From positions 5,326 through 37,325 of the forward strand of contig JADFLH010000006.1 in assembly GCA_022564515.1 (NCBI GenBank): 32,000 nt of DNA. The letters run 5' to 3'. Positions 2,452 through 25,284 of this stretch are shown here, one piece after another (the stretch's first letter is position 1; the number at the start of each line of letters is the position of its first letter). A program made the position numbers and the translations under genes. The DNA is from Nitrososphaerota archaeon. GTDB taxonomy: Archaea > Thermoproteota > Nitrososphaeria > Nitrososphaerales > Nitrosopumilaceae. Below the pieces are notes generated by a model. The model did not search any database and had not been told where the DNA came from. It saw only the letters and a list, made by a program, of their open reading frames with translations.

Positions 2452-2469
2452 AAAGTTCTTATCAAATGT
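2452..2469. repeat. degenerate copy (16/18) of the dispersed imperfect palindrome: aaagttcttatcaaatgt
   Basis: Matches ACAGTTCGTATCAAATGT at 16 of 18 positions. It lies 52 nt downstream of the dinB stop, in intergenic DNA. Confidence 0.6.
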
Positions 2470-2537
2470 AATTTAGAATTTAATGAATGAAATGGTGGGA
2501 ATCCTTTTTTACAATTAATGAGATGAAAGTTTCAAGG

Positions 2538-2605
2538 CAGGCAAGTAGGTTCACATTATGTTGTAGGCAAATACAACAAAAGATCGTCCTACTTACCTGA
2601 ATACA
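2538..2605. ncRNA. candidate structured RNA: 12-bp GC-containing stem enclosing a smaller hairpin
   Basis: caggcaagtagg (2538-2549) pairs with cctacttacctg (2588-2599) at 11 of 12 positions. The single C/A mismatch on the + strand becomes a G-U pair on the - strand. An inner stem is ttgta/tacaa (2561-2565 / 2572-2576). The structure sits in a 400-bp ORF-free gap. The strand is unresolved. Confidence 0.25.
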
Positions 2606-2795
2606 CTTTACTCTAATGCCTAAAAAGGAACACGTATTATTTCTACTAGAATTTCCACTCTGTGCTTGAAGTGTGTCTGATCAATAAGGTACTATTTAAT
2701 GACAAATGCTTGTTTCTGAATCTATATCTAGTCCTTTAGCAATCAATTCTTAATTAATTGCATTACACCTTCTGTGCCATCATAATGGGCATGTT

Positions 2796-2996
2796 TTATT
2801 TTAGTGAGGTTTGTAAATACTGCACTTTTTTTTGATTCTGAGCTAACTCTTTCGCATAATCATCGACTAGTAAATTAGTAATTTTTTGTATATACTCTAT
2901 CTCATCATTATGTAGATGGTCACGTCCAGCATCAGCTACATTTTTGATCACAGCACTGATTTCAGTTATTAGAGTAGTTCTAGCCCAAATGCCCAA
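2796..2996 (-). CDS. hypothetical protein (helical, 66 aa)
   Basis: This is the only ORF of 60 aa or more in the 2400-3144 gap. No recognisable motif. Confidence 0.3.
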   Translation of the reverse strand: MGIWARTTLITEISAVIKNVADAGRDHLHNDEIEYIQKITNLLVDDYAKELAQNQKKVQYLQTSLK

Positions 2997-3144
2997 TTAT
3001 ATTACTATAGCAGCTTTGTATTTAATGATGATGTTGTGTCAGATGATCATGTTACACAAACTTTCAAATTTGGAAAGTTTGTTTCATTAAAACTATTCTA
3101 TAGACATTTTGGGTTTTTGGTTTACATCTTACACAAACTAAAAA

Positions 3145-3453
3145 CTAATAATTGATTTTTTTAATTCTTACCTGGCTTCCCTTTGATTCAAAAAAATGTC
3201 CCAAATAATTCTTGAGTTGTTCACCTATTCTAAATCCCAATGCTCCTTCCATCATACCCGACTTTTCGATTATGTAGGACATTTCTGAGCTTATCTGAAT
3301 GTTAAAAAAAGTCCATCCAGCCTTTGTAAACGACTCACTTATTTCAAAACCATTTTTTACTTTGCAAATACTTTCAAGTTCTTGCATTGCTTTTTTCACT
3401 AACTTGATTTCTTCTTCATATTTTCTTGTACTTAGCTGAAATAACGCCCTCAT
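3145..3453 (-). CDS. hypothetical protein; full-length paralog of the frameshifted gene at 12491-12783
   Basis: 102-aa ORF. A hand alignment to the 12491 ORF shares Y..(D/E)I..(I/V)KKA...L...C......G, FF and Y.IE, and the similarity continues after frame correction of the second copy. Confidence 0.55.
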   Translation of the reverse strand: MRALFQLSTRKYEEEIKLVKKAMQELESICKVKNGFEISESFTKAGWTFFNIQISSEMSYIIEKSGMMEGALGFRIGEQLKNYLGHFFESKGSQVRIKKINY

Positions 3454-3513
3454 CAGTATGATTATTCATTTCATCCATAATAACTAGTTCACAACAACTG
3501 ATGACTTTGATTT

Positions 3514-3531
3514 ACATTTGATACGAAATAC
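3514..3531. repeat. degenerate copy (15/18) of the dispersed imperfect palindrome: acatttgatacgaaatac
   Basis: The first 14 nt are identical to ACATTTGATACGAA. It abuts the stop codon of the archaeosortase-like gene and lies 60 nt upstream of the 102-aa ORF start. Confidence 0.6.
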
Positions 3532-4493
3532 TAATTTTGTTGCTTTGTAACAGCTTCATTTTTTTTTATTCGCCTAGTCTCTATAGTCATAACTATCAGC
3601 AAAAATATGAAAAGCCATGGCAGAAACATTATCTCGCCAGCCACTGAATGAAACTCTTCCCATTTGGCAGCATTTGTGGTAACCTTTAGTGCATAAGCTG
3701 AAAGCGCAAAAATTCGAATTACATTTACTGTGATTGTTCCCAAGATTCCTAGTCCAAAGTATACGGCCTTTCTGTTTCTTGGAATGTTCATTTTGAGCAA
3801 AAATGCCATCATTACAAGTGAAAAAATGATGATGCTGTGAACACCTGCGGATGGCCAAAACACCTGCAACACAAATGGCCCATGATCTCCTCTAAGAAAC
3901 ATAATATTGCCTCGTGCAGTAGCTTCACCCAAATCAAATAGAGTTACTAGCCAAACATTAAGATCTACAAGATATGGAACAAAGTATTGTAATGGTCCTA
4001 GTGAATCGTAAGGGAAAAAGGCATCAAGTGATAAAATTATTGCGCTTCCTCCAAGAAAGATTGGCCCCGCCGGTCCTATTCGAATCCATTTTTTTCCAAA
4101 GTAAATAGAAAGAGCTGCAATGACAAATATTGTCATTATGATAAAGTCCCACATCCAGGTCCATGATAAGATTAGCTGTATGTTGTAAACTTCGGCTCCC
4201 TGTTCAATGTATTCTCGTAATCCAAATTCCAGTGAAACGAGATATACAATTACTAGAGCTGCCAAAGGAATCACAACTAGGAGCCTCTTTTTTGAGATTA
4301 CAAACTTTAGGCCTACTAGTTCTGCTACAATAAATGCCAGTGCAAAGAGAAATCCTCCCCGTCCCTGGTTCCAGCTCAGGCTGAATGTATCTGGAAATGC
4401 TACAAGAGCAAACAGAATCGGGCTGGATACAATTGCGATTGCGATATAGAGGTTTTTGTTTTTCACTTTGTTTTTTTCAGTTTGATGGGTCAA
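3531..4493 (-). CDS. exosortase/archaeosortase-family polytopic membrane protein (thaumarchaeosortase-like), cysteine-free
   Basis: 320 aa with about 8 hydrophobic segments. Motif order and spacing resemble the family as I remember it: VFWPSAGVHSIIIF (in place of the xxCSGxxS nucleophile motif), TVNVIRIFAL (NxxRI) 45 aa later, and EEFHSVAGEIMF. The protein has no Cys at all. Confidence 0.6.
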   Translation of the reverse strand: MTHQTEKNKVKNKNLYIAIAIVSSPILFALVAFPDTFSLSWNQGRGGFLFALAFIVAELVGLKFVISKKRLLVVIPLAALVIVYLVSLEFGLREYIEQGAEVYNIQLILSWTWMWDFIIMTIFVIAALSIYFGKKWIRIGPAGPIFLGGSAIILSLDAFFPYDSLGPLQYFVPYLVDLNVWLVTLFDLGEATARGNIMFLRGDHGPFVLQVFWPSAGVHSIIIFSLVMMAFLLKMNIPRNRKAVYFGLGILGTITVNVIRIFALSAYALKVTTNAAKWEEFHSVAGEIMFLPWLFIFLLIVMTIETRRIKKNEAVTKQQN

Positions 4494-4508
4494 TAAAAGG
4501 TTAGTAGA

Positions 4509-4649
4509 TTATTTTTGCTTTATTGTGGAGCTTTTCTTTGCTATCTTTTTTCGTCTTTTTTTCTTGTAATATGCAGAATCAAATCCTGTGTCTTTGCCTT
4601 TCATTTGTTTTTCACCGATGATTAATGCTTTGAATGTTCCCAACTTCAT
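4509..4649 (-). CDS. possible small basic protein (46 aa), below the ORF-track cutoff
   Basis: Hand-translated as MKLGTFKALIIGEKQMKGKDTGFDSAYYKKKRRKKIAKKSSTIKQK. Its ATG overlaps the methyltransferase TGA stop (ATGA). It ends 15 nt before the archaeosortase-like start. Confidence 0.3.
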   Translation of the reverse strand: MKLGTFKALIIGEKQMKGKDTGFDSAYYKKKRRKKIAKKSSTIKQK

Positions 4650-5206
4650 AATTTTTTGAGTAAATTAAATCGAGATTTTTCAGGATCAATTTCTTCATGC
4701 ATGTCAACGTTGCTGATTATCTTTACTTTGAAATCTAACCATCTTTTGTACAAGTTTCTATATCTAGATTTGCCGTCAGGACTAATTAGATCTTCATCCT
4801 CGCCAAACAATTCAAAATTTACAATGTATTTTCTTGAAACCCGAAATAATTCACTTATTGCATCTAGCATATCATTATCATCAATGTAATTCAAAACCTT
4901 GTGAGTGAAAACCAAATCAAATGAAGAATTTTCATATGGCAATTCAAGAATAGAGCCTTTTTTGAACTTGAATGAACCAAGTTTCTGTTTTGCTTTTTCT
5001 AGCGCATGATCATTGAGATCAAGTCCATGAACATCAAAATTCTCAGGAAATGCTCTTAGATCATTTCCTGTACCACAGCCTACCTCAAGAACAGTTTGAG
5101 CCCTTAGTGAAAGAGCCAGGTCACAGATGAATTTCGAAAATTCCTCGTTGTAATTAGAATCATTTGTATTGGCATACTTTGTCCAAAAGTCATTGTCATA
5201 TTTCAT
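4646..5206 (-). CDS. class I SAM-dependent methyltransferase
   Basis: VLEVGCGTGNDL (motif I), an acidic residue after beta-2 (HGLDLN) and FDLVFTHKVLNYI (motif II/III region). Confidence 0.85.
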   Translation of the reverse strand: MKYDNDFWTKYANTNDSNYNEEFSKFICDLALSLRAQTVLEVGCGTGNDLRAFPENFDVHGLDLNDHALEKAKQKLGSFKFKKGSILELPYENSSFDLVFTHKVLNYIDDNDMLDAISELFRVSRKYIVNFELFGEDEDLISPDGKSRYRNLYKRWLDFKVKIISNVDMHEEIDPEKSRFNLLKKL

Positions 5207-5418
5207 AAAATATTTTCAAATCTTACAGTATTTTCATCTTCTTTAACTATTTTGACACCTTTGCTGTCAAAAAAACTTTGTATAGTTCCATTCCATTTTC
5301 TAATGCTTTCAAAACTTGGTCTTTGATTGGTCTTTTTTGCAGTTCCTTTTTTGTAATCTATATACCAGTATTCGTTTGATTTAGAATTAATGTTTGTTTG
5401 TACCCATAAATTTGTCAT
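5203..5418 (-). CDS. hypothetical protein, translationally coupled to the methyltransferase
   Basis: 71-aa ORF whose stop overlaps the methyltransferase start by 4 nt. Confidence 0.45.
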   Translation of the reverse strand: MTNLWVQTNINSKSNEYWYIDYKKGTAKKTNQRPSFESIRKWNGTIQSFFDSKGVKIVKEDENTVRFENIL

Positions 5419-5622
5419 TTTTCTTTCCTGCCACCAAATTTGCTTTGAAATACTAATCAGCTAGAGAGCCAAGTAATCTTTTAGCTGTGAATAATCAAAC
5501 AAATCGGTGCCAGTCTTTCTTAATTTGGCCATAATATTATTACTATAATACTAGTTTAAAGTGGTTTTAATGAATTTAAAAAGTTCAAAAATCATAATCT
5601 GTAAATAGAAAAGTGATGATAA

Positions 5623-6231
5623 TTGTCCGAGCTTGATTACATGGATTTAGAAATCTTGTATCAGGCTAAAAAATCTAAAAATGGCATCAGTCCTGAAGCT
5701 GTTAGCCAACAAGACGTTTTCACTCCTGGAATATGGGAGCTTGTAGACAAGTTTGCTTCCATGCAAGAAAAAAATCTGCTTACCAAAAACAAGGAAGGAT
5801 TGTTTGTTTTAACAAAAAATGGAATTAATACATTTTGGGACATCGAATCTCCCTTGTGGTTGAATTTGTTGAAATTATTACGTGTCAAACCACTAGCAGA
5901 TATCGAATGCGCGAGGTATCTTGAGGAATACATTCCCGCCGTACAACAAGCCCTTGAGATGATTAGAAAAAAGGGATACATTATGATGTCACAGTTAAGA
6001 AAAGAGGAAAAACTACTCAAAATGTTTGAGATATTGCCGGAGGGAGTTGAACAGATTACAAAATTAAAGAAAAAGGACATGTTTGTTGTAAAATCAGGCG
6101 ACAAATTAGTTGTTGAATTAGATGATGGTGATGGAATACTCTATGAAATAATTGATGACCTGGTAAATCCTCTGAGAATGATTAAAACATTATCAGAGGA
6201 CGAGATAAAAAAATACAAGCAAACTCTATAG
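5623..6231 (+). CDS. hypothetical protein (possibly tandem winged-helix-like)
   Basis: 202-aa ORF with a TTG start in the track. An in-frame ATG at 5641 (MDLEILYQ...) is an equally plausible start. No firm family. Confidence 0.55.
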   Translation: MSELDYMDLEILYQAKKSKNGISPEAVSQQDVFTPGIWELVDKFASMQEKNLLTKNKEGLFVLTKNGINTFWDIESPLWLNLLKLLRVKPLADIECARYLEEYIPAVQQALEMIRKKGYIMMSQLRKEEKLLKMFEILPEGVEQITKLKKKDMFVVKSGDKLVVELDDGDGILYEIIDDLVNPLRMIKTLSEDEIKKYKQTL

Positions 6232-6310
6232 TTTTCTTGCACTACTAGCCTTGATATGGTGAATCTGAAAAATTCCTGAAATTAAGAAAAAACAAAGTAT
6301 ATTTTAACTA

Positions 6311-6493
6311 TTGAATCTTATAAATGAAGAAATGAATCTAGAAGTTGAGAATTATAAAAAGATTCAGATTGGAAAAGTCATCAGTAGCAAAGATAGTCCA
6401 GTGGGAATCGATGCCAAAAAAACTCACATTATCATTATTAACAAGCTATTTGAAATTGAGAAACGATTAGATAAACTTGAAAAATCTCGTTAA
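6311..6493 (+). CDS. hypothetical small protein
   Basis: 60-aa ORF from TTG, with an in-frame ATG at 6332. The C-terminus looks coiled-coil (FEIEKRLDKLEKSR). Its stop codon overlaps a palindrome copy. Confidence 0.35.
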   Translation: MNLINEEMNLEVENYKKIQIGKVISSKDSPVGIDAKKTHIIIINKLFEIEKRLDKLEKSR

Positions 6494-6510
6494 CATTTGA
6501 TACGAACTGA
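6493..6510. repeat. copy (17/18) of the dispersed imperfect palindrome: acatttgatacgaactga
   Basis: Read directly. It is preceded by cgtta, so it sits in cgttaacatttgatacgaactga. It lies 68 nt upstream of the UDG start. Confidence 0.85.
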
Positions 6511-6578
6511 TTTACTAGATATCTATTGGGGGGTTGAATTCACTTTTTTAATCTATTTAGATGCTTTAATAGAAAAGT

Positions 6579-7256
6579 ATGAGATTGAAAAAATCCCATT
6601 CCCTAAAAACCATAAACAAAAAAATAATCAAATGCAAAAAATGTCCAAGGCTAAATTCATACATTAAGGAAATTTCAAAAACCAAAGTAAAGCGATTCAA
6701 GGATCAAAAATATTGGGGCAAACCACTGCCTGGTTTTGGGGATATTAACGCTAAAATTCTGATTGTGGGTTTGGCACCAGCTGCACATGGTGGAAATAGA
6801 ACAGGTAGAATGTTTACTGGTGATTCATCAGGGGACTGGATTGCAAAGGCACTATATCAAAATGGGTTTGCAACCCAACCAACTAGCACTCATATTGGTG
6901 ATGGTTTTTCTTTAATTGATACCTACATTACAGCCGTGATTCGTTGTGCTCCGCCACAAAACAAGCCCCTAAACAGTGAATTAGAAAATTGTTCAGCTTT
7001 TTTGAAAAAAGAACTTTTGATTCTTGAAAACGTGAAAATAATAATTTGTCTGGGAAGAATTGCATTTACCAGTGTTTGCAGAATTTTGGCAATAAAGGGG
7101 CAAAAATTTTCTCACGGGCATATGTTTAAGCATGAAACCAGATTCATCATCTGCTCGTATCATCCTAGCAGGCAAAACACAAACACAGGTAGACTGGTTT
7201 GGAATCAGTGGAATTTGATATTTAAAAAAGCAAAGAAATTATCAAATCCCAAATAA
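6579..7256 (+). CDS. udg: uracil-DNA glycosylase, family 4/5 type (GLAPA motif, Fe-S Cys ligands)
   Basis: CKKCPRL near the N-terminus, ILIVGLAPAAHGGNRTGRMFTGDSSG (motif A of the GLAPA type, as in UDGb) and CSYHPSRQNTNTGRL (motif B). Confidence 0.9.
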   Translation: MRLKKSHSLKTINKKIIKCKKCPRLNSYIKEISKTKVKRFKDQKYWGKPLPGFGDINAKILIVGLAPAAHGGNRTGRMFTGDSSGDWIAKALYQNGFATQPTSTHIGDGFSLIDTYITAVIRCAPPQNKPLNSELENCSAFLKKELLILENVKIIICLGRIAFTSVCRILAIKGQKFSHGHMFKHETRFIICSYHPSRQNTNTGRLVWNQWNLIFKKAKKLSNPK

Positions 7257-7294
7257 TCTACTACCTTTTATGATCCATTTTACCCTAAAATAAA

Positions 7295-7828
7295 GTGAAA
7301 AACAAAAAGCTAATTCTGGGAATGATTGCAGCAGCAGTACTAATCGTATTTTCTACAAATTTTCTACCCGGTATCATAGAACCGCAAGAGATTTCAGATG
7401 AATATACCTATGAAACCACGTTTCCAGTTGGCCGTCCAATACAAAATGTAAATGAAAAAACAGACTGCAAAGGAGCTGCCATGTGCATGACAGGCGATGT
7501 AACAAAAATCATTGATGGTGATACAATTCATGTTTTAGGAAAAAAGATAAGACTGGCTCTTGTTGATACACCTGAAATTAATCAACCAGGATTTGTCGAG
7601 GCTACTGATTTTACAAGGCGTCTTTGTCCGGTTGGATCAAGCGTTCTTGTTGATCAGGATGATGGACAGATCATCGACAAATATGGCAGAATAATTGCAA
7701 AGGTTACATGCTCTGGCATGAACCTAAATGAGCAGCTTTTGGAAAACGATCATGCCATAATGCTGACTGGATTTTGTGATGTTAGTGAGTTTTCATCTGA
7801 ATCCTGGGCAAAAAAGTTTGGTTGTTAA
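7295..7828 (+). CDS. secreted/membrane-anchored thermonuclease (staphylococcal nuclease, SNase-like)
   Basis: N-terminal hydrophobic signal/anchor (LILGMIAAAVLIVF), then VTKIIDGDTIHVLGKKIRLALVDTPE, which is typical of the SNase fold. GTG start. Confidence 0.8.
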   Translation: MKNKKLILGMIAAAVLIVFSTNFLPGIIEPQEISDEYTYETTFPVGRPIQNVNEKTDCKGAAMCMTGDVTKIIDGDTIHVLGKKIRLALVDTPEINQPGFVEATDFTRRLCPVGSSVLVDQDDGQIIDKYGRIIAKVTCSGMNLNEQLLENDHAIMLTGFCDVSEFSSESWAKKFGC

Positions 7829-7887
7829 AATTTTGAATTTGTTAAACAAATCATTTAGCTGATCTTAGGATTATTTTCAGCCATGAA

Positions 7888-8010
7888 TTAGTTTTTTATT
7901 CCCTCATGTATGCCAAAGAGACATTCAGCGCACATTTTGTTTTGCTCAAAAACCGAATTGAAGCAATAGCATTTCTTACAATTACACTGAAAGCTTTCTA
8001 ATTTCAGCAT
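7888..8010 (-). CDS. possible 40-aa zinc-ribbon protein, below the ORF-track cutoff
   Basis: Hand-translated as MLKLESFQCNCKKCYCFNSVFEQNKMCAECLFGIHEGIKN, with CxCxxC ... CxxC. It overlaps the 3' end of the 84-aa ORF in another frame. Confidence 0.25.
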   Translation of the reverse strand: MLKLESFQCNCKKCYCFNSVFEQNKMCAECLFGIHEGIKN

Positions 8011-8236
8011 GTTTCCAATCTCCTATATCATAACCATCGCGTCTGAGATATTTCAATGTAAGCTTGTAAACGAGTTCGTCATGATCTACTTTTTCTAAAA
8101 GCTCATCCCATAACACTTTGCTTTTCTTATCAATCTCATTTTTTATTTGCACATTCATAGATTCGGCAATTTCTTCGCACTGGCTGAAGGTTTTTCCATT
8201 CTTATAAGCTCGTGTTCTGGTATCACAGCTATCCAT
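7982..8236 (-). CDS. hypothetical protein
   Basis: 84-aa ORF. No recognisable motif. Confidence 0.45.
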   Translation of the reverse strand: MDSCDTRTRAYKNGKTFSQCEEIAESMNVQIKNEIDKKSKVLWDELLEKVDHDELVYKLTLKYLRRDGYDIGDWKHAEIRKLSV

Positions 8237-8312
8237 ATTTTATTTTTGTTCTCATAGAATAAAAATGTGGGTGATTAGTTCAAAATCAAAATGAGTATAT
8301 CATGAAAATCAC

Positions 8313-8333
8313 AAAAAAGGGGGGGGTGGGTGT
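8313..8333 (-). terminator. possible oligo-T termination signal preceded by a C8 run (transcript sense cacccacccccccctttttt)
   Basis: Starts immediately after the stop (8334-8336) of the 112-aa ORF. Archaeal termination commonly uses oligo-T tracts. The + strand shows G8 at 8319-8326. Confidence 0.35.
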
Positions 8334-8672
8334 TTACTGCACCTTCATATCTTTATAATTAAAGGGTGGGATATTCATCTCTAAGAATTCTTTCAGTCTT
8401 TGTGTGATATCTTCTGTCGTAATATCATCCATACTGGGTGAGCCTATTTCAAAGGATATTTTGTTGGCACCAATGTTTGCATTCTGTATAACAAGATCTG
8501 CATATTGATTTGTAATTTCGTTGACATAGTACTCGGCTTCATCTGTCTTTACATCTGTAACTTCCCATTCTACTTTTATAGGTTTGAACTTTGCATCTCC
8601 AGCATAATCCTTTCCTGAGGAAAGGCCTTGATCTTTTGCAACTTCAGCATCTACCATTACAAAATATATCAT
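8334..8672 (-). CDS. hypothetical acidic protein
   Basis: 112-aa ORF. A TATA-like tatttaaa lies about 38 nt upstream of the ATG, and a palindrome copy lies 60 nt upstream. Confidence 0.5.
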   Translation of the reverse strand: MIYFVMVDAEVAKDQGLSSGKDYAGDAKFKPIKVEWEVTDVKTDEAEYYVNEITNQYADLVIQNANIGANKISFEIGSPSMDDITTEDITQRLKEFLEMNIPPFNYKDMKVQ

Positions 8673-8732
8673 CTGATGAAATAAAAACTATCCTAGCTTT
8701 TTCTTTAAATACTTTGAACATAATTCACGTTA

Positions 8733-8750
8733 ACAGTTCGTATCAAATGT
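8733..8750. repeat. exact copy of the dispersed imperfect palindrome: acagttcgtatcaaatgt (extended ttaacagttcgtatcaaatgttaa, 8730-8753)
   Basis: Read directly. It is inverted relative to the 6493 copy. Intergenic, between nre (stop at 8869) and the 112-aa ORF (start at 8672). Confidence 0.9.
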
Positions 8751-8868
8751 TAATTTGTATAAAAAAGGAAAATAAGCTAATTGAATTAAATTACTTTAAA
8801 CAAAACTTGGCCTAAAATAGAACAGCCTAAAATTAATTATTAATTTATCAATGATTTGTAGAATCAAT

Positions 8869-10026
8869 CTAAAAGAAATCAGAGATTCTCTTTTGTCTCA
8901 TTAATTTCAAAATAAAACCATGAGAAAGCCATTCTTTTGTACTAATACTCATGGGTTTAGCTGCAACATCAAGAGCATTCCCAAAGCTATCAGCTAAAAC
9001 AGGCTTTTGCTTCATAGCTTCTCGTACTCCTTCACGAATCTGCCAAACCCCAATAGGTATTGCATATTCTGGTCTTATCTCTCGCAAAACCAAGGCTCCT
9101 GATTGAATCTGGTTCCTTACAAGATATTCCCCAACAGCTAGCTTTGCTGCAAAGTAAGCACCAGCTATTTCAGGCGGATGATCAATTCCTCGCGCATCCT
9201 CATGATCAGAACCAAATCCCAATACTCCTTTTGAATACCATGCCTCTATCATTTCATATAGCCACCTGTACGGAAATAGTATCACAGAAAAAAGATTACC
9301 CATATGCTCAAAATGAAAAACCCTGACACCGTCAATTAAGGGATAATCAAGAGTCTCATCAATCAATGACTTTGATATAATATCATCAGTTGCAGTAATG
9401 CTCCATCGTGTAGGAACAAGTTTTCTTTTCTTTCCCATCATTCCAATCGAAAAGCATTTTTGAATCTGTGAAATCTCTATTCCAGAATTGTACAGCTTTA
9501 AAACAGCATCTGATGCTAAAAGGTCCCTGTCATAATACACTTTTTCAATTTGTCTTTGAGATGGCGAGCTTGAAAACTTGACACTCTTTATCTCCCCAAT
9601 TGGTCCAAATGGAGCACTATAACCATCAAGCAACCCAACAGGGGAAGTGGCCTTGTAAAACCGGATGTCTGAATCTGTTGCAGTTTCGGACATTGCAAGC
9701 TCTTGCAAATTCTCAATGTATCTGCCAGAAGGATCACTTACTGGAACCTTTTGGATTCCTCGAACCAGGTTTAGACGATAGTTTACTATTTCCTCTAGTG
9801 TTTTTCCAATCCATTTTTCAGGAGTATCTAAAAGACTGGTATCTCCATGAATTGGTGGAACCATTGGACCGACATTCACTTTGGGATAGTTATACGAACC
9901 AACAAAAACAGAAGGGGGGCTTGTTCCACTCAAAGAATCTGATGAAAAAAGATTCCCATACTTTGAGAGGTACTCGTTCCATTTAGCTTCAATTGCCTTT
10001 CTGATGTCTTGTGAGCTTGAAACCAC
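8869..10026 (-). CDS. nreA: Nre-family archaeal DNA repair protein (NreA-like) with a C-terminal PIP box
   Basis: SPPSVFVGSYNYPKVNVGPMVPP near the N-terminus matches what I recall of the Nre (DUF650/651) family, and the length of 385 aa fits. The extreme C-terminus QKRISDFF fits Qxx[ILM]xx[FY][FY]. GTG start. Confidence 0.78.
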   Translation of the reverse strand: MVSSSQDIRKAIEAKWNEYLSKYGNLFSSDSLSGTSPPSVFVGSYNYPKVNVGPMVPPIHGDTSLLDTPEKWIGKTLEEIVNYRLNLVRGIQKVPVSDPSGRYIENLQELAMSETATDSDIRFYKATSPVGLLDGYSAPFGPIGEIKSVKFSSSPSQRQIEKVYYDRDLLASDAVLKLYNSGIEISQIQKCFSIGMMGKKRKLVPTRWSITATDDIISKSLIDETLDYPLIDGVRVFHFEHMGNLFSVILFPYRWLYEMIEAWYSKGVLGFGSDHEDARGIDHPPEIAGAYFAAKLAVGEYLVRNQIQSGALVLREIRPEYAIPIGVWQIREGVREAMKQKPVLADSFGNALDVAAKPMSISTKEWLSHGFILKLMRQKRISDFF

Positions 10027-10114
10027 TGGATTTTATGCCTATTTTGTGCCTAATAAGATAGTGTTGAGTATGGTTTTTACCATCATAGTTACTTATTAAA
10101 CCAAAGTCTTAACG

Positions 10115-10239
10115 AATTCATCGACAAAGAGAAAAAAGGGAAAACCTTCCCCTCATCCTACGCACAAAAAATCAACCATGACTCACGTTATGATGGATGG
10201 TGTGAGTTGTTGGAAAAGTTTACAGTTCGTATCAAATGT
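10115..10239 (+). ncRNA. candidate structured RNA / conserved intergenic element, copy A (ends in the palindrome)
   Basis: About 70% identical by hand alignment to 13438-13556. Helix cgacaa(10122-10127)/ttgttg(10207-10212) and helix catcc(10154-10158)/ggatg(10195-10199) both covary with copy B. G-T pairs exist only on the + strand. A local hairpin is gggaa-aacc-ttccc. Confidence 0.4.
10222..10239. repeat. exact copy of the dispersed imperfect palindrome: acagttcgtatcaaatgt
   Basis: Read directly. It is the 3' end of element A, 195 nt upstream of the nre start on the opposite strand. Confidence 0.9.
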
Positions 10240-10497
10240 ATGAAATGTTGTTTGATTAAAACATACTTTCTTTTTTATTCCTTGAAACCATATTCCAAGC
10301 ATGTTCGATTTATGGGCAACATTGACTGGTCTTATGGCTCAAATTGCTAGTATTTTTGGATTATAATGAAAAAATTAAAGCGAGATAGATGATTGACAGT
10401 CTTATAATAACTATAAAAGCAAATGTCCAGAATGTGGTGCAAAATCTAGGGTAATTCCAAGAATTTAGGAAACTATTATTTCTTATTTTCTTTTTTT

Positions 10498-10515
10498 ACA
10501 ATTGATGCGAACTGA
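10498..10515. repeat. degenerate copy (15/18) of the dispersed imperfect palindrome: acaattgatgcgaactga
   Basis: Read directly. It lies 90 nt upstream of the rtcB start and is followed at once by a TATA-like aaattataag. Confidence 0.6.
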
Positions 10516-10605
10516 AAATTATAAGAACACTTATCGATTCAGATTTGAAATTCCTCCTTCAACTTATGATTTAAATTATCTAAACATGGTTTTTTACCGT
10601 TCATA

Positions 10606-13300: not shown

Positions 13301-13437
13301 ACACCTTGATGGGTTTAAAAAACATTAGTCTTAGTTTTTTCAAGGGTTAATCTCAAATTCTTAAGATAAATTGCTGGATTAGTGTGTGTGAACCATGATC
13401 AAACACTTTTTTAGACAAACTTTTGTAAGTACTTACA

Positions 13438-13556
13438 AATTCATTGACAAGGAGTAAAAAAGCAATCCTCCCCCTTCTGTGCGTGAATTTTCCGTTATGA
13501 CTAGCGTTATGACATGAAGGTGAGTTGTCGGAGCATTTACAGTTCGTATCAAATGT
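13438..13556 (+). ncRNA. candidate structured RNA / conserved intergenic element, copy B (ends in the palindrome)
   Basis: Homologous to 10115-10239. Helix tgacaa(13445-13450)/ttgtcg(13525-13530) and helix ccttc(13473-13477)/gaagg(13516-13520) keep pairing through compensatory changes. Contains the direct repeat cgttatgac-tag-cgttatgac. Confidence 0.4.
13539..13556. repeat. exact copy of the dispersed imperfect palindrome: acagttcgtatcaaatgt
   Basis: Read directly. It is the 3' end of element B, 238 nt upstream of the rps11 start on the opposite strand. Confidence 0.9.
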
Positions 13557-13915
13557 AAAAAAAGAAAGAACCTGATTATGGCTAGCGCTAATCGTACGTT
13601 ATGATTCGTTGCAATTTTACGTTCCGAGTCTATTGCATGTATCTGATTGATGCCTTTTCAATCTCACTTCGGATATTATCATAATCAACAGGTGTTAGAT
13701 CAGTAATCTTGTTGCTTTTTGTAGCCATTGAATAAACTTATTTTGTGTTCATAAAAGAAACCGTGTCTATTTTTTTTCCTTATACTGTCTAGCAATCCAA
13801 TTAGAATTTTAAATTTTCAAAATAGTGTTTACAGTAATCTAGTAATAGATTGTTGCGAAATTTTAGAATTTTTGATAGAGGATTTAATTGAAATTTCTAA
13901 AGTCTATTTAAAATA

Positions 13916-16950: not shown

Positions 16951-16952
16951 TT

Positions 16953-17234: not shown

Positions 17235-17317
17235 ACAATTATCAGAAAAACACCATGATATAAGGGTATTACCAATCATTTAGAACAACTAAATATTAAT
17301 CCGACTCGATTGGAGCG

Positions 17318-17908: not shown

Positions 17909-17909
17909 C

Positions 17910-18264: not shown

Positions 18265-20016
18265 TTATAGAAGATTTCCAACTAATTTTTTAATAGAATC
18301 AATTTCTTCTTCTTCTTGTTTTATTTTCTTGTCTATCACACGAAGCATTGCGTCATTCCAAACATGATGAGAAAAGAAATTATGTTTTGTATTTGCAAGT
18401 TCAATTTCATCATCCACCGCGGTGTCTTCTAGAAATTTTGTCACGACAACATCTGCGAGTTTAAGAATCCTAGAATTTAACTTAAAACTCCGAAAAACAG
18501 GCTCTAATTTGTGTATATCCAGCTTAAAGTCGCCTTTAGTTTCTAGTATTTTTTTATTTAATATTCTAAAGTATACGGCCACATAAAATAAGGTGGCATA
18601 TCTTTTCGTTTTGTGTTCTCCCCTCTTTCCATATCTTAAGGCCTTCTTAGCGAATTCCTTTACAAAATAAGGATAAAGCAAAAGTTTGTAATCATCTTTC
18701 AAATTTTCATTGAACACTTCATCATATTTGCGACCTCTAGGCAAAAATTGTGCTGGAGAACTATATGCTTCAGTCGGTCTTTGTTCTATACCGGCCACCA
18801 AAGCCTGAATAGCATCTTTAGCAACGATTACTTTTTTGTGATTATTTGGTAGGTAATTATTGTAAGTAAAATCGCCATCAAATTCAGCTTGTTCAGATTT
18901 AGTTTTACAATCAAAAGAACCTGCTTGAATTTCATAAAAATAGCAGTGGTTTTTTAGTTGAGATTTAATTGATTTATGAAAATCCATTAATGAAACAAGA
19001 TCTTTACCTCTAACAGAATTCTGTGAATTTCTGTATTTTGTAATGTTGTTTTGGTCTTGTTCATCATCTGCCCTAATTATTGTAACAGTCATACTCCCTG
19101 TCATATTTCGTGTACGCTTTGCATGATCTAAAATTGAATTTGATGTTTGGGCACCATTAACAATTTGTGGAGTGTGTAACAAGAGTTTATTCTCTCCTAG
19201 TTCTTCAAATTCACTTACCACTATAGTAATTCCATTATTATAATAGAAGAATTTGTCAGGATCAGTTTGAAGAGTTTCACGTAATCCTTTATTCACAGAA
19301 GTTTTGAACTGCATCCACTGTCTAATATTTGATTCAAAAACATAGTCTCTATTTCTGGTTACAAACTCTGTGAGCTCACGTAGTTTTAAAATCCCAAGAA
19401 TCGTGTTTTCATGTCGCAGCATTTTTTCCAATTTTATAGTTGATTTTTTGCCAGCGGCTGGTTTTTTTATTCGATCCCATAATATTTGGATAATTGCATT
19501 GATATCAACAATCTCTACTTCGTTGTCTTCATATTCTACCTTTTGATCTGTGACATAACAGCATTCGATCTTAAGATTTTTTTCATGTATGACTGTCACA
19601 AGACGTGCCAATTCAGGTCGCATTTTTGTAATATCGCGTTCAAGAAGTCTTTTTACATCCTCTTTGAATTTAATTATGGCGTCAGTTGAGTGTGATGTAG
19701 CATATTTTGATTGAAATAATCGAATTTTATTCTCAGAAAAATCCACAGGAAGATATGCATCAATACCTAGATCATTAGCACCATCTACTATTGCATCGGC
19801 AGCATCATCTTCTGTTGCTTCAAAAACTCTTGTTAGTACCCACTGAAGAAAGTTGTTGCCTTTTTCTACCTCAGTTTTTGCACTCTCAACATAATCACGA
19901 ATGCTTTTACCAATGTTTTCTGAAAATCCTTCAAGAGGGATACTAGAATTTTTTTGAGCTAATAATGATCTTGATCCTGGAATGTATTCCAATAAACCAC
20001 TGTTGTTTTGTGCCAA
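18265..20016 (-). CDS. AIPR-family abortive-infection/phage-resistance protein
   Basis: 583 aa. The N-terminal IVDGANDLGIDAYLPVD...IRLFQSKY (nuclease-like D..D..QxK arrangement) and the central FFYYNNGITIV ... PQIVNGAQTS match the AIPR (Abi-like) signature as I remember it. Confidence 0.72.
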   Translation of the reverse strand: MAQNNSGLLEYIPGSRSLLAQKNSSIPLEGFSENIGKSIRDYVESAKTEVEKGNNFLQWVLTRVFEATEDDAADAIVDGANDLGIDAYLPVDFSENKIRLFQSKYATSHSTDAIIKFKEDVKRLLERDITKMRPELARLVTVIHEKNLKIECCYVTDQKVEYEDNEVEIVDINAIIQILWDRIKKPAAGKKSTIKLEKMLRHENTILGILKLRELTEFVTRNRDYVFESNIRQWMQFKTSVNKGLRETLQTDPDKFFYYNNGITIVVSEFEELGENKLLLHTPQIVNGAQTSNSILDHAKRTRNMTGSMTVTIIRADDEQDQNNITKYRNSQNSVRGKDLVSLMDFHKSIKSQLKNHCYFYEIQAGSFDCKTKSEQAEFDGDFTYNNYLPNNHKKVIVAKDAIQALVAGIEQRPTEAYSSPAQFLPRGRKYDEVFNENLKDDYKLLLYPYFVKEFAKKALRYGKRGEHKTKRYATLFYVAVYFRILNKKILETKGDFKLDIHKLEPVFRSFKLNSRILKLADVVVTKFLEDTAVDDEIELANTKHNFFSHHVWNDAMLRVIDKKIKQEEEEIDSIKKLVGNLL

Positions 20017-20286: not shown

Positions 20287-20358
20287 AGGTGAGGGAGGGA
20301 GTCGAACCCCCTTGTATAGGCTCTGCAGGCCCACGCATAACCGCTCTGCCACCTCACC
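20287..20358 (-). tRNA. tRNA-Cys (anticodon GCA)
   Basis: Hand-folded from the reverse complement: acceptor GGTGAGG/CCTCACC, D arm GCAG-AGCGGTT-ATGC, anticodon arm TGGGC-CTGCAGA-GCCTA, variable TACAA, T arm GGGGG-TTCGACT-CCCTC, discriminator U73 (the Cys identity element). 72 nt. Confidence 0.9.
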
Positions 20359-20382
20359 GCAGTCAGAAAAACACGTAATTAA

Positions 20383-20390
20383 CAATTAAA
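20383..20390 (-). promoter_or_regulatory. TATA-box-like element (tttaattg on the minus strand) for tRNA-Cys
   Basis: Lies at -25 to -32 relative to the tRNA 5' end at 20358. Confidence 0.35.
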
Positions 20391-20399
20391 CTCTATTGA

Positions 20400-20621: not shown

Positions 20622-20721
20622 CGAATAAGTTTTTTTAATAAATGCTAAAAGACTTTGAGTAAAAAAATATCACAAAGAAACCGATTTATGCAGACTTGGT
20701 ATAAGTTTAATTTGAAAAAAC

Positions 20722-21477: not shown

Positions 21478-21509
21478 GTATAAAAAACCCTCTTTAATAA
21501 TTCGGATAA

Positions 21510-21836
21510 GTGGATAGAATCAAAAAATTTTCTTTGGAAGTTTTAAAAAACTACAAAGCCCATTTTGGAACGAACTTTGAAGAGAATAAAAAAACCTTGG
21601 AACAATTTTCAATAATTCGTTCTAAAGGTCTTAAAAATGAAATTACGGGTTATATAACAAAATATATCAAACATGAAATTCTTGATAAAAAGAAAAAGGA
21701 AGAAAGAATAGCTAAACAAGACAAACTAGATGATACTCAAGAAGAAAACTTGGACATTGGTGAACCTAAAATTCAAAGTAACACTGACACTGAAAACCCC
21801 TCTGTTAAGGAAAAACCTCGGGGGATTTTTGAATAA
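21510..21836 (+). CDS. rps17e: 30S ribosomal protein eS17 with a K/E/D-rich C-terminal extension
   Basis: FGTNFEENKKTLEQFSIIRSKGLKNEITGYITKYIK matches the S17e core (F..DFE.NK......SK..RN.IAGY.T). About 50 extra C-terminal residues are present. GTG start. Confidence 0.8.
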   Translation: MDRIKKFSLEVLKNYKAHFGTNFEENKKTLEQFSIIRSKGLKNEITGYITKYIKHEILDKKKKEERIAKQDKLDDTQEENLDIGEPKIQSNTDTENPSVKEKPRGIFE

Positions 21837-21883
21837 AGTTCAGAAAATTAAAATTCATTGTGATTGGTTCTTAGTATGGTAAA

Positions 21884-22657: not shown

Positions 22658-23170
22658 TAATTTTCGTTTAGATGTTTCCAAACTAAATATATCATCTTTC
22701 GTTAAAACTGAAATACCTGAAGTATTGCCCAGTATTTCAACCAAAACTATCCAATCTGGTTTTTCTAATGACACTTTATTTTGAATATTTTCAGCAATTT
22801 TTGAGATAATCTTCATACTTGGGAGGTTTGAATTCCGTTTCTCTACAGTTATTCGATAAGTTTCCTTTTCATTGACTCTTTCCATTAAGGAGTGAACCTG
22901 ATTAGATATGTCTTCTAAATTTGTATTTGCTACTTTTTGAATAGGAATTATTCGAAGACAATATCTTATTGACCAAGGTTCTTCAATAATTTTTTTCCTA
23001 ATCTGTTTTATCACTTCAAAAGTATCTAACTTAGTTCTTGCTGTGAGAATTCCTGACATGTCAGTTTCAGTAATTTCAGGATTGTCATCACCAAAAACCG
23101 TCAAAATTTTTTTTAATTCATCACGAGTTTCAGGTTCAAGATGTCTAGCACATGTAATAATTAAATTCAA
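22649..23170 (-). CDS. THUMP-domain RNA-binding protein (stand-alone)
   Basis: 173 aa. The N-terminal MNLIITCARHLEPETRDELKKIL and the C-terminal YRITVEKRNSNL...PDWIVLVEILGNTSGISVL resemble stand-alone archaeal THUMP proteins. Overlaps tsaC by 4 nt. Confidence 0.62.
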   Translation of the reverse strand: MNLIITCARHLEPETRDELKKILTVFGDDNPEITETDMSGILTARTKLDTFEVIKQIRKKIIEEPWSIRYCLRIIPIQKVANTNLEDISNQVHSLMERVNEKETYRITVEKRNSNLPSMKIISKIAENIQNKVSLEKPDWIVLVEILGNTSGISVLTKDDIFSLETSKRKLLE

Positions 23171-23775
23171 AATAAATTCAAAATCTCCTCTTTTGAAATA
23201 TTGCCTTCTCTATGAATTTGAATTTTTTTTTCATTGATTTCAACAATGGTGGATTCCCTATCCCCAGTAATTTTACCACCGTCAAGAAAGACTTCATTAT
23301 CTGAAATATTCTTGGCACATTCCTCAGGATCCGTAAACGAGCCTGAGCCTGATATATTGGCACTGGTACCTATGAGGAAGTTACATCGTTCTAAAAGTGC
23401 TAAGGCACACCTATTGTTTGGAACTCTTACAGCTACATTATTTTCTAAATTCATTGAATTTTTTAATTTTTCATCTTTGAGTGGTAAAACAAAGGTGATC
23501 TGTCCAGGCCAAAATTTTTCAGCAATTTTATTTGATCTTTCATCAAAGATTACAATTTTTGAAAGAACACTTTTTGAAAAACCTAAAATCGGAAACAGTT
23601 TATCATAATCACGATTTTTTATTCTGTAAATTTTATCAACAGATTCTTTGTTGTACGGATCACATCCAATTCCATAAACTGTATCTGTGGGAAAAATTAC
23701 AATACCTCCTTTCTTGATTGTTCGTTCTGCGATGTTTATTCCATCAGCATCACATTTTATTCTCAAAGTTTTCAA
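23167..23775 (-). CDS. tsaC: L-threonylcarbamoyladenylate synthase, short YrdC/TsaC form (t6A pathway)
   Basis: GGIVIFPTDTVYGIGCDPYN, IYRIKNRDYDKLFPIL, FWPGQITFVL, VAVRVPNN and IGTSANISG are the YrdC/Sua5 N-domain motifs. At 202 aa there is no Sua5 C-terminal domain. Confidence 0.9.
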   Translation of the reverse strand: MKTLRIKCDADGINIAERTIKKGGIVIFPTDTVYGIGCDPYNKESVDKIYRIKNRDYDKLFPILGFSKSVLSKIVIFDERSNKIAEKFWPGQITFVLPLKDEKLKNSMNLENNVAVRVPNNRCALALLERCNFLIGTSANISGSGSFTDPEECAKNISDNEVFLDGGKITGDRESTIVEINEKKIQIHREGNISKEEILNLF

Positions 23776-23806
23776 ATAGTAATTAACACATCTTTAATAA
23801 TAATGC

Positions 23807-23826
23807 AAGTTTCGTATCTCAAATCT
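23807..23826. repeat. weak, degenerate relative of the dispersed palindrome: aagtttcgtatctcaaatct
   Basis: Shares the ttcgtatc core and aaat, with a 2-nt insertion and end mismatches. It lies 31 nt upstream of the tsaC start. Confidence 0.3.
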
Positions 23827-23929
23827 CGTTTTAAGCTAAATTTGTGGTATTTCTAATAATTACATTTAGCAATTTACTACCAAATTTTCGTTTAACAATA
23901 AACAGTTATTCCCAAAATTACTCATTTGA

Positions 23930-25036
23930 CTAGAATTTTGAATCTACCATAACAAGACAATGGTCAATCTTGCCCTTGTAAGGTGTGGATACTGAAAAAT
24001 GTCTAAAATCCTTTGATGCAACATCTACAATCTTTGAAAGACCTGTAGCTACAACATTTCCAAAATCATCGAATAGAAGTAACTTGAAAAACAATGCATC
24101 ATAGTAAATATTGTCATTGGTATAATCACCAGATAAAGTTACAATATTGTTTTGCTTTTTACACAGCACCCCACTAAACTGATCATTGTATTTTGATTCG
24201 TAAAAATTCATCGAACTGACATATAGATTAGTTTGTTGAGCCAAAGAAAGCTTAGCTTGGTGCTCTTTTAGCTGCATATTCTTTTCTGCCAAGGCCGACA
24301 TTACTTGAATTTCTTTTTTGGATGGGTCTTCAGTAATAATTCCTTTTTCGATAAGATACTCTATTGAATTTTGATACTCTTGCTCTGAAATTATTCCTTG
24401 TTTGTGCCACTTTAAGATTTTTTGAACCCAGCTTGGAAGGGGATATTTTTGTGAAGAATCTGTTGTAGACAAAAGTATCTTTTTACAGTTTGGACACGAA
24501 GTAGAATGATGGTTGTCCATCATAACAAGATAGTATCTTTTTGTACCGTCCATGTTTAGAATTTCATTATTCCAAATTCGCAAAACATCAAAACAAATTG
24601 TAAAAACTTTTGATTGGCCCATTTTAACTCGATCATTTGTATAGTCACATTCATTGAAGAGCTCACGAGAGTAGAAATTGTCATATTTGACTTCTAGCTC
24701 AAAATCGTAACTTACGTAATAGTTGTCTACAATCTCAAGGACATCATTATTTTGATTGTTATCTCCAATAGGTTCCATCAACCAAATATTGAACATCGTA
24801 GCATGCACAACAAAATAATCTATACCATTGTTTGTAATGTTGATTGTTATCTTGATAAGATCAGCATCATCAAAGTAATAATCTGGAGTGTCATCCATTG
24901 AGAGAACTTGAAGATCCATTACCTGAAGATCAATCAAATCCAAGTCGTAATCGCCAGGTTGGAAAGCGGAGACTAAAGGAACTCCAATTACTAATGTAAT
25001 AATTGCAGGAAGGATAAAATGGAAATTCAACGACAT
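23930..25036 (-). CDS. hypothetical secreted/anchored protein
   Basis: 368 aa with an N-terminal hydrophobic signal/anchor (FHFILPAIITLVIGVPLVSAF). The remainder is soluble and Y/N/D-rich. No family recognised. Confidence 0.6.
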   Translation of the reverse strand: MSLNFHFILPAIITLVIGVPLVSAFQPGDYDLDLIDLQVMDLQVLSMDDTPDYYFDDADLIKITINITNNGIDYFVVHATMFNIWLMEPIGDNNQNNDVLEIVDNYYVSYDFELEVKYDNFYSRELFNECDYTNDRVKMGQSKVFTICFDVLRIWNNEILNMDGTKRYYLVMMDNHHSTSCPNCKKILLSTTDSSQKYPLPSWVQKILKWHKQGIISEQEYQNSIEYLIEKGIITEDPSKKEIQVMSALAEKNMQLKEHQAKLSLAQQTNLYVSSMNFYESKYNDQFSGVLCKKQNNIVTLSGDYTNDNIYYDALFFKLLLFDDFGNVVATGLSKIVDVASKDFRHFSVSTPYKGKIDHCLVMVDSKF

Positions 25037-25194
25037 TACATTATGATTATCTTTTTTCGATTATAATTCTAATTATTTTTGCATTCATTCCACTAGTTTC
25101 TTCCGCATTACCATTTGCCAATGCAGAAGTACTTGACTGGGTCAAAAACACCTAGATGGTCTTTTGAAAGATTTGTCAAATGTAAGGAAAATTA

Positions 25195-25212
25195 ACATTT
25201 GATACGAACTGT
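25195..25212. repeat. exact copy (reverse orientation) of the dispersed imperfect palindrome: acatttgatacgaactgt (extended ttaacatttgatacgaactgttaa, 25192-25215)
   Basis: Read directly. An extra half-site tcaaatgt lies at 25176-25183. Intergenic. Confidence 0.9.
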
Positions 25213-25284
25213 TAATGGAAAAATCGTTTAAGCTACACTTTGCATATCCTTATTAATAATTTGATTCATTGTTGAATAGATATT

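Follow-up and report, generated by a model that had tools for sequence, protein, structure and literature searches.

Repeats of the repetitive extragenic palindrome (REP) type, and gene modules bounded by recombination sites, are known almost only from bacteria. On Acinetobacter plasmids, many copies of pdif sites bound one- or two-gene modules that occur in varying contexts. In the related dif sites, arms of 11 bp enclose a spacer of 6 bp, and cleavage takes place at the spacer edges (PMC8371274); the E. coli dif site reads GGTGCGCATAA-TGTATA-TTATGTTAAAT (PMC3025954). A survey of thaumarchaeal mobile elements lists proviruses, casposons, insertion sequence (IS) elements and integrated elements, and no miniature inverted-repeat transposable elements (MITEs); the RepRanger survey did not include the phylum Thaumarchaeota. 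Here we describe a 24-bp palindromic repeat, TTWACAGTTCGTATCAAATGTWAA, from a stretch of 32,000 nt of Nitrosopumilaceae DNA (the window; all coordinates are on its forward strand). Full-text literature searches returned no description of this 24-mer or of any REP-like family in Thaumarchaeota. The repeat family is restricted to one narrow clade of ammonia-oxidising archaea, and its copies mark joints where gene blocks were inserted, swapped or inverted. The latter is the main property of the element, and it was overlooked in the initial annotation, which had described an intergenic palindrome and proposed that it serves as an operator, a REP-like hairpin or an RNA-level hairpin.

Our search of the window used the 18-mer ACAGTTCGTATCAAATGT with up to 3 mismatches on both strands, and was compared with shuffled sequences. 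It produced 8 matches, where 0.02 are expected, and none of 100 shuffles reaches 8. Thus, the earlier view that the copies are not due to chance is upheld. The sites are as first listed: exact copies at 8733(+), 10222(+), 13539(+) and 25195(-), a match of 17/18 at 6493(-), one of 16/18 at 2452(+), and two of 15/18 at 3514(-) and 10498(-). All eight also lie between long open reading frames (ORFs), as had been stated, and the copies at 3514 and 6493 share bases of their TTA(A/G) end with a stop codon. The quasi-palindromic character of the motif is likewise borne out. Its size of 18 bp is not, as the conserved unit is 24 bp (26 bp if a weak R...Y flank is counted). Copies are therefore named below by the first base of the 24-mer (Table 1). 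Along the window, the eight copies are oriented + - - + + - + -, and copies are absent from 25216-32000 and from the 5 kb that follow the window.

Table 1. Copies of the 24-bp element and associated features in the window.
Feature	Position	Strand	Basis
Degenerate copy TTGAAAGTTCTTATCAAATGTAAT, 5/24 mismatches	2449..2472	+	Motif search, comparison with L220
Hybrid copy at the exosortase-like gene, overlapping its stop codon	3511..3534	-	Motif search, comparison with L220
Hybrid copy between 60-aa ORF and udg	6490..6513	-	Motif search, comparison with L220
Perfect 24-mer between NreA stop and 112-aa ORF	8730..8753	+	Motif search
Non-coding segment ending in element 10219	10104..10218	+	Paralogous to 13427-13535, 71-78% identity
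Copy with 18/18 core, NreA/RtcB divergent gap	10219..10242	+	Motif search
Degenerate copy ~40 nt outside the conserved RtcB promoter region	10495..10518	-	Motif search
Non-coding segment directly before element 13536	13427..13535	+	Paralogous to 10104-10218
Copy with 2/24 mismatches inside the 579-bp insertion 13328-13906, S11/ThiL gap	13536..13559	+	Comparison with L218
1,441-bp insertion with 368-aa ORF	23805..25245		Comparison with empty site in L218
Probable decayed copy AAGTTTCGTATCTCAAAT with 2-nt indel, inverted relative to 25192	23807..23824	+	Left tip of 1,441-bp insertion
Half-site TCAAATGTAA, 6 nt ahead of the 25192 copy	25176..25185	+	Sequence
Perfect 24-mer, 30 nt within the right end of the 1,441-bp insertion	25192..25215	-	Comparison with L218

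The distribution of the element was established with a control set of 80 NreA-centred loci, one per GTDB species. Three of these contain it (L003, L004, which is 'NPMR_NP_theta_2', and L005), and their NreA proteins are 84-85% identical to that of the window. The other 77 Nitrosopumilaceae loci (1.21 Mb) have no copy at up to 5/24 mismatches, also when the palindromic skeleton alone is scored, and a search of the same 77 species for an equivalent repeat of another sequence found no comparable repeated 12-mer. The element is missing from a close sister lineage too: L218 and L220, two contigs from one sample, are syntenic with the window at 76-85% nucleotide identity, and no copy is present in the sister loci L215-L218 and L220. 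In contrast, the exact 18-mer occurs in at least 119 metagenome stretches. The clade loci, from metagenome-assembled genomes and metagenomes, number 121 (480 kb) and hold 249 copies once chance matches in a viral gene are removed. These chance matches were in eight IMG/VR viral contigs (L081-L088) and in L110 and L142, where the exact 18-mer falls in one conserved coding region and has no TTAA flanks. Most of the clade DNA consists of short metagenome contigs that were chosen for containing the motif, and related strains, which are not independent, were collapsed by flank similarity. In the loci that were not chosen in this way (the window and its extension, L003, L004 and L005), density is ~0.3 copies/kb and patchy.

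Alignments between clade loci stop exactly at the outer edge of the element, with starts that peak at its first base and ends that peak at its last bases. Breaks were counted by taking the 120-nt flank that abuts a site and matching it elsewhere at ≥88% identity with room for the match to continue; the midpoints of element-free gaps in the same loci served as the control. For element sites, the other flank follows in 28 cases, and homology breaks at an element of the other locus in 99. Among matches of ≥97% identity, collinearity is broken at 23 of 43 element sites versus 8 of 65 control gaps (p = 7e-6), and at 93-97% identity the corresponding counts are 20/26 and 10/29 (p = 0.003). Assembly misjoins are an unlikely cause of these breakpoints, because copies within 100 nt of contig ends are not enriched (10.5% versus 10.3% expected).

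Individual loci illustrate the kinds of rearrangement. L005 and L151, which are 94-97% identical, carry two cassettes in swapped order, e-A-e-B-e in the former and e-B-e-A-e in the latter, where e is the element, and variants in the arms remain with their own adjacent segment at all four comparable junctions. Also in L005, a ten-gene block of 7.4 kb that is collinear with element-free species has no copies, and the nine copies of this locus lie where collinearity ends. In the window, copies 2449, 3511, 8730 and 10219/10495 divide genes with syntenic homologues in control loci from genes without them. The gene that follows NreA is a different one in every related lineage examined, and the NreA/RtcB gap that holds copy 10219 is a synteny break relative to both sets of relatives. 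A locus 93% identical to the window (L163) has its NreA/udg block arranged otherwise, and the breakpoints in the window are at copies 6490 and 8730. No pair of filled and empty sites was found among the motif-chosen contigs, where every collinear pair retains the element; empty sites come from the sister lineage alone.

Comparison with that lineage resolves several window copies to the nucleotide. Copy 6490 opens with 11 nt (TTAACATTTGA) whose orthologue in L220, TTAACATCTGA, closes the same small gene, and homology ends at 6500. Copy 3511 is made of two parts: 8 nt of ancestral sequence, which end the exosortase-like gene (3527-3534, + strand), and 16 nt of new sequence (3511-3526). Homology to L220 thus ends at element position 11 in one copy and 16 in the other, a pattern that homologous recombination would produce as well, and in both cases the new DNA is joined on the element-derived side. 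Copy 2449 belongs to a 1.1-kb segment (2405-3526), 44 nt in from its left edge, and L220 has 2.3 kb of other genes in place of this segment. Near copy 10495, homology to L218 begins at 10559; the alignment upstream of RtcB is too poor for an empty site to be defined.

The pooled copies from related DNA give the consensus TT(A/T)ACAGTTCGTATCAAATGT(A/T)AA. Its 9-bp arms, TTAACAGTT and AAATGTTAA, are inverted with one mismatch (8/9 palindromic; arm TTAACAkTT), and they enclose a non-palindromic 6-bp centre, CGTATC. The initial annotation had three window copies extended to TTAACA...TGTTAA, but both sides are complete at 8730 and 25192 only. The 24-mer is weakly preceded by a purine and followed by a pyrimidine, with T-rich and A-rich sequence, respectively, beyond. 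No longer repeat surrounds the element, because 30-nt flanks are unique in 167 of 169 copies. A search for a longer MITE around it likewise showed unique flanks, save for one local pair of ~130-nt paralogues in the window. These two segments (10104-10218 and 13427-13535; ~115-130 nt) each end in an element copy, are found at no other locus, have no Rfam match and fold no better than shuffles. The short motif ATTCATTGAC recurs close to elements at other loci.

Non-palindromic bases of the element are nearly as conserved as palindromic ones, also among the 96 copies that were not chosen through the exact 18-mer. Conservation is lowest at positions 10 and 11, which are the central CG (74% and 71%), and at positions 3 and 22. 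A subfamily retains the arms and has GTTATG or TTTAATG as its centre. Ten close doublets (for example, L089 2256-2299, L185 3793-3836 and L091 756-799), with an offset of 20-24 bp and usually a common TTAA, each pair a consensus-centre copy with a variant-centre copy, and nine of the ten are inverted. The inverted doublets amount to near-palindromes of ~44 bp, and the half-site at 25176 may be a remnant of such a doublet. The left half of the element is also found fused to another short motif in a recurrent sequence, TTAACAGTTCGGTAATTC (L094 193-215, L113 1346-1365, L185 1343-1365, L160 and L200), which may be the product of exchange with a different site family.

Copies are strongly confined to intergenic DNA across the clade: 234 of 249 (94%) lie between genes, while 23% of the DNA is non-coding (p = 1e-128). 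Tandem, convergent and divergent gaps are all occupied, at 33%, 40% (34/86) and 25% (26/103), so the copies are not tied to promoters. Their distances to genes are uneven. Half of the stop-facing copies are within 30 nt of the stop codon and 31% are within 10 nt, compared with 16% under uniform placement in the same gap; the TTAA end of several copies provides or overlaps the stop codon. Start-facing copies lie within 30 nt of the start in 11% of cases, compared with 25% under uniform placement. The spacing of 60-90 nt upstream of start codons that had been remarked on for several window copies is not general, as start distances are broad (median 85 nt) and stop distances are short.

The orientation of a copy relative to its upstream gene is not significantly biased (31:19, with sites collapsed to 131 flank-related clusters). 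However, neighbouring copies 60-3000 bp apart share their orientation in 70 of 89 unique pairs (p = 5e-8), whatever the strand of the genes. For example, eight of nine copies in L154 are co-oriented across genes on both strands, as are 6/6 in L151 and 5/5 in L102. Coherence on the scale of a replichore is not seen: orientation matches in two of eight pairs more than 3 kb apart.

These observations suggest a family of clade-specific, 24-bp extragenic palindromes that have a distribution like that of REPs and of bacterial interspersed mosaic elements (BIMEs), have the anatomy of a dif site and serve as the joint for mobile gene cassettes. We assign this reading a probability of roughly 0.4. We infer that a site-specific recombinase works the joints. 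A dimeric enzyme would bind both arms, and the likeliest candidate is a tyrosine recombinase of the Xer/integrase type. With strand exchange in or beside the centre, neither arm would be separated from its flank. Cassettes would be excised and, by integration of circles, re-inserted when direct copies recombine, which could build arrays of one polarity, and recombination between inverted copies would flip segments. The asymmetric centre would orient the site and so give rise to polarity, and the centre variants would represent a subfamily with heterospecific spacers. Occasional exchange with chromosomal look-alike half-sites could yield hybrid copies. Selection would presumably clear copies from promoters, with the result that they accumulate just past stop codons.

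Several points weigh against this reading. A regular expression for box II of tyrosine recombinases, which is a weak screen, was negative in 480 kb of clade DNA and 1.2 Mb of control DNA; as ~0.4 copies of a single-copy gene are expected in the clade DNA, the result is uninformative. Clustering of 492 ORFs of the clade loci brought out no transposase-like family. Two insertions in the window (discussed below) have 15-bp target duplications at sites unlike the element, which is a mark of staggered-cut transposition rather than of tyrosine recombination, and in one of them, of 579 bp, the element is internal and not terminal. The central CG is the most variable part of degenerate copies, a poor fit to strict spacer identity. 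Homologous recombination between 24-bp repeats would yield the same association of arm with flank. In addition, 24 copies lie exactly 4 nt upstream of a conserved promoter-like module, and they could have a regulatory role instead. Solo half-sites are not in excess: the one noted earlier at 25176 is real, but in the larger data set such half-sites are no commoner than in control DNA. For the same reason, we do not rely on a segment of L185 that is flanked by half-sites and resembles a secondary-site insertion. Finally, ORF calls were greedy, and the related DNA comes mostly from short, motif-chosen metagenome contigs. The estimate is held near 0.4 because no recombinase was found and because of the 15-bp duplications, the variable CG and the equivalence of homologous recombination. 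More than one process may be at work.

A bolder version of the cassette-joint reading, which we regard as doubtful, is that cassettes are shuffled across the whole chromosome. Hundreds of dif-like sites would then be used by an Xer-type or other site-specific recombinase that excises, re-inserts and inverts one- or two-gene cassettes, many of them with a standardised promoter.

The main competing explanation, though unlikely, draws on the two window insertions that are revealed by empty sites in L218. The palindrome could travel as a passenger in non-autonomous transposons, or belong to them near their ends; these would insert with a 15-bp staggered cut, for instance through a casposase-like Cas1, and the rearrangements would be secondary homologous recombination. 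Direct repeats of 15 bp, ATCTTTAATAATAAT (23790-23804) and ATCCTTATTAATAAT (25246-25260), border the 1,441-bp insertion; the right one has two changes, and ATCTTTAATAATAAT is single-copy in the L218 empty site. The independent insertion of 579 bp at 13328-13906 has duplicated the 15-bp sequence TTTAAAATACTATTA, which occurs once only in L218. Casposases give duplications of 14-15 bp, and family 1 casposons occur in Nitrosopumilus (PMC6614799, PMC6563490). Moreover, the 1,441-bp insertion opens with the poor relative at 23807 and closes 30 nt past the perfect copy at 25192, the two being inverted. This relative had been put forward on sequence similarity and is below any mismatch threshold, but its exact position at the left end of an insertion that has a copy at its right end makes it probably a decayed copy with a 2-nt indel. 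Recombination at short homologies, like site-specific exchange, would keep each arm with its flank.

Other features of these insertions fit a transposon less well. The element lies 209 nt from the nearest end of the 579-bp insertion, the two insertions differ from each other at their ends, and neither contains a gene for Cas1 or PolB, unlike a casposon, which has both of these together with terminal inverted repeats. Most copies have flanks that are unique right up to the 24-mer, the copies in arrays are direct rather than inverted around each cassette, and the junctions of hybrids 3511 and 6490 lie within the element. Both insertions may be casposon-like elements that are not autonomous. The larger one lies between the second HTH_45 gene and Sua5, in a gap that contains YjbQ in L215 (3289-3708), nothing in L218 (3552-3695) and the 368-aa ORF in the window (23805-25245), and that looks like a recurrent hotspot of insertion.

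Less probable is a role as an operator or upstream activating site for a dimeric protein, for example one of the HTH_45 family, or as a roadblock or insulator between the end of one gene and the promoter of the next. The initial annotation had raised a related idea, an operator for the two winged helix-turn-helix (wHTH) proteins of the window. A double-stranded palindrome with independent half-sites and no hairpin constraint would suit an operator; the last 30 nt before start codons are avoided; and small regulators are common among neighbouring genes. Another argument comes from a second clade-specific repeat, GAAAATTCTTAATTCTTAG, which has 71 copies in related loci and two in the 1.21 Mb of control DNA (examples are L185 3086-3104, L151 3220-3238 and L117 2694-2712; it is absent from the window and from L005). 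It is followed by ~18 nt that resemble TTTAGGCTAGAAAATTC and then by the start codon. We take this module to be a transcription factor B recognition element (BRE; GAAAA) and a TATA box centred ~26 nt before the ATG, which would imply leaderless transcripts. At 24 related sites the element precedes GAAAATTCTTAATTCTTAG by exactly 4 nt (TCCT), always in one orientation. A BLAST search of the element and this promoter composite against phage and plasmid collections returned nothing relevant. Given the fixed spacing, intergenic DNA in the clade is built from a few standard modules, in a rather BIME-like manner.

These arguments do not carry over to the family as a whole. Convergent gaps hold a copy more often than divergent gaps do, and more than 100 sites have the identical 18-mer, including its non-palindromic bases, unlike operators that are selected independently. 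A symmetric regulator would not make the polarity of neighbours coherent. Fixed spacing to a promoter is confined to the 24-copy composite subfamily and is not seen at the window copies, and the distribution of the HTH_45 proteins does not follow that of the sites. HTH_45 relatives number 1,864 at E ≤1e-5, many of them 72-87% identical and from Marine Group I, and L215-L218, which are syntenic with the window over 10.6-28.9 kb, have both wHTH genes and, in loci of 20 kb, no copy. In view of the copy-free syntenic HTH_45 loci, the copies in convergent gaps and the polarity coherence, the element is unlikely to be an operator for wHTH proteins. At the 24 composite promoters, regulation or insulation as a side-effect is conceivable.

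Lower still we place a true REP or REP doublet forming a hairpin (REPIN), in which the palindrome would fold while single-stranded and owe its copying to a domesticated HUH transposase of the IS200/IS605 type, the REP-associated tyrosine transposase (RAYT). The suggestion of a REP-like family, as first made, holds in part: the element is a short, extragenic and lineage-specific palindrome of REP-like size and high copy number, and its inverted doublets of two types could fold into a 20-bp stem like those of REPINs and BIMEs. Elements of the IS200/IS605 group are present in Thaumarchaeota (PMC6563490). However, singlets outnumber doublets by ~24:1, and the fold of a single copy has an energy of -1.5 or -2.5 kcal/mol for RNA (the value differs between the strands) and of -1.7 to -2.3 kcal/mol for DNA. 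Among 220 unique copies, we found no compensatory covariation in the arms. Counts of one-sided changes and of changes on both sides that still pair are 59/2, 48/2, 23/0 and 20/1, and the single frequent double change, at positions 3 and 22, has the rate predicted from single-change frequencies. As the fold is weak and the arm changes are one-sided, base pairing is not what selection or copying preserves, which argues against both an RNA-level reading and a RAYT-type single-strand mechanism and favours recognition of half-sites in duplex DNA. Judged from the pattern of substitutions, the element most likely acts as double-stranded DNA and not as a hairpin. In addition, no conserved GTAG/CGTC tag stands by the stem, where the flanks show TT(A/T) and a weak R/Y only; orientation is coherent locally only; and clustering of 492 ORFs from the 480 kb of clade DNA revealed no HUH gene.

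A hairpin in 3' untranslated regions that acts in termination, processing or mRNA stabilisation, as had also been suggested, is very improbable: copies do accumulate just after stop codons and T-rich sequence tends to come before them, but the fold is very weak (z-score ~ -2) and uncompensated, both orientations follow genes without significant bias, divergent gaps contain copies too, and the element has no Rfam match.

The window has a G+C content of 33%. Its NreA matches a protein of a 'Thaumarchaeota archaeon' metagenome-assembled genome at 100% identity, which places the window in a Nitrosopumilaceae genome. Among its genes, which were predicted by simple greedy ORF calls of ≥60 aa, are those for Alba, DinB, a family-4 uracil-DNA glycosylase (UDG), an SNase-like nuclease, NreA, RtcB, S11, ThiL, phosphoglucosamine mutase, an AIPR protein and the two HTH_45 winged-helix proteins. 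Element copies are interspersed in a repair cluster at 1305-12054 (DinB, family-4 UDG, SNase-like nuclease, NreA and RtcB, with a PDCD5-like dsDNA-binding protein), the gene order of which is unlike that of every relative examined. The proximity of copies to dinB, udg and the genes for the SNase-like nuclease, NreA and RtcB raised the idea of a DNA-repair regulon, which was dropped because the neighbours of copies at other loci have no common theme. The AIPR (abortive-infection) protein (583 aa; 18265-20016, -) adjoins tRNA-Cys (20287-20358). Its gene is kept at the equivalent position in the element-free relatives L215-L218, and thus it is fixed rather than a recent acquisition for defence. 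The Alba-domain protein (337-939, -) has an N-terminal extension with five tandem PEPQTESP repeats (685-870, 24-nt period), and a different sequence stands there in the sister locus L220. An Rfam scan of 10-14 kb, at gathering thresholds and at an E-value of 1, identified two tRNAs only and did not match the element.

If a recombinase does act at these joints, the element would provide a mechanism for accessory-gene turnover in these archaea. It would also offer a natural recombination site of very small size, functional in the AT-rich chromosome of an archaeon, as well as a marker with which to trace one sediment and marine clade of Nitrosopumilaceae in metagenomes. One 24-bp sequence accounts for breaks in gene order among close ammonia-oxidising archaea, a group whose genomes are usually thought to be small and stable, and the element-free sister lineage is a ready set of empty sites. 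Chromosome-wide shuffling, if true, would make the system an archaeal functional analogue of integrons and pdif modules that is dispersed over the chromosome rather than held in a single array or bound to plasmids.

Several described systems resemble the element in part. Correia repeat enclosed elements (CREE) of Neisseria also have hundreds of intergenic copies that contain or abut promoters and terminators and are found at synteny breakpoints. However, they are MITEs of 100-155 bp with 26-bp terminal repeats and TA duplications, whereas the element is a bare 24-bp palindrome. Casposons and CRISPR systems, which rely on Cas1 integrases, have in common with the window the 15-bp target duplications, and direct palindromic repeats are formally like a repeat-spacer array. 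They differ in that Cas1 and PolB are missing here, the inserts measure 0.6-1.4 kb, the palindrome is not what the target duplications consist of, and the repeat is 24 bp rather than 15.

The attC sites of integrons, such as the Vibrio cholerae repeats (VCR), are likewise imperfect palindromes between single-gene cassettes, in arrays of one polarity with strain-variable order and with hybrids at secondary targets. An attC site is 55-141 bp, conserved in structure and recombined as a single strand, whereas the element is 24 bp and conserved in sequence. The R''-L''/L'-R' boxes and extrahelical bases of attC have no counterpart in a 24-bp unit with unique flanks, and no integrase (intI) or attI lies nearby. 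Moreover, integron cassettes are usually promoterless and sit beside intI/attI, whereas those described here are dispersed among housekeeping genes and often have the promoter module.

The REPs and BIMEs of Enterobacteria and Pseudomonas are also imperfect extragenic palindromes of 20-40 bp, with a sequence specific to a narrow lineage and a preference for the 3' side of genes; by extrapolation, the element would have a few hundred copies per genome. As in BIMEs, two sequence types meet head-to-head in doublets (compare Y and Z REPs) and are combined with other short modules. The element differs from these repeats in its archaeal host, its AT-rich, very weak and uncompensated stem, the lack of a GTAG/CGTC tag and of a RAYT, its mostly direct rather than alternating neighbours, and its location at cassette joints.

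The closest match in anatomy is dif, the target of Xer recombinases (XerA in archaea). Both have two inverted arms and an asymmetric 6-bp centre, within the 6-8 bp usual for such spacers, and an in-register alignment of the element with E. coli dif shows that the two agree in ATGTTAA of one arm and in GTAT of the centre. No xer gene was located in the clade DNA examined, and binding by a recombinase is a prediction. The arms of the element are 9 bp, perhaps 10, versus 11 in dif, and chromosomal dif is a single-copy site near the terminus, whereas the element has 8 copies in 32 kb. In the latter respect it is more like pdif, copies of which likewise bound small modules, although pdif sites are inverted and flanking copies of the element are mostly direct. 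Thus, the element combines a REP/BIME-like distribution with an anatomy and a behaviour like those of dif or pdif, and it represents a family that is new to the thaumarchaeal literature searched.

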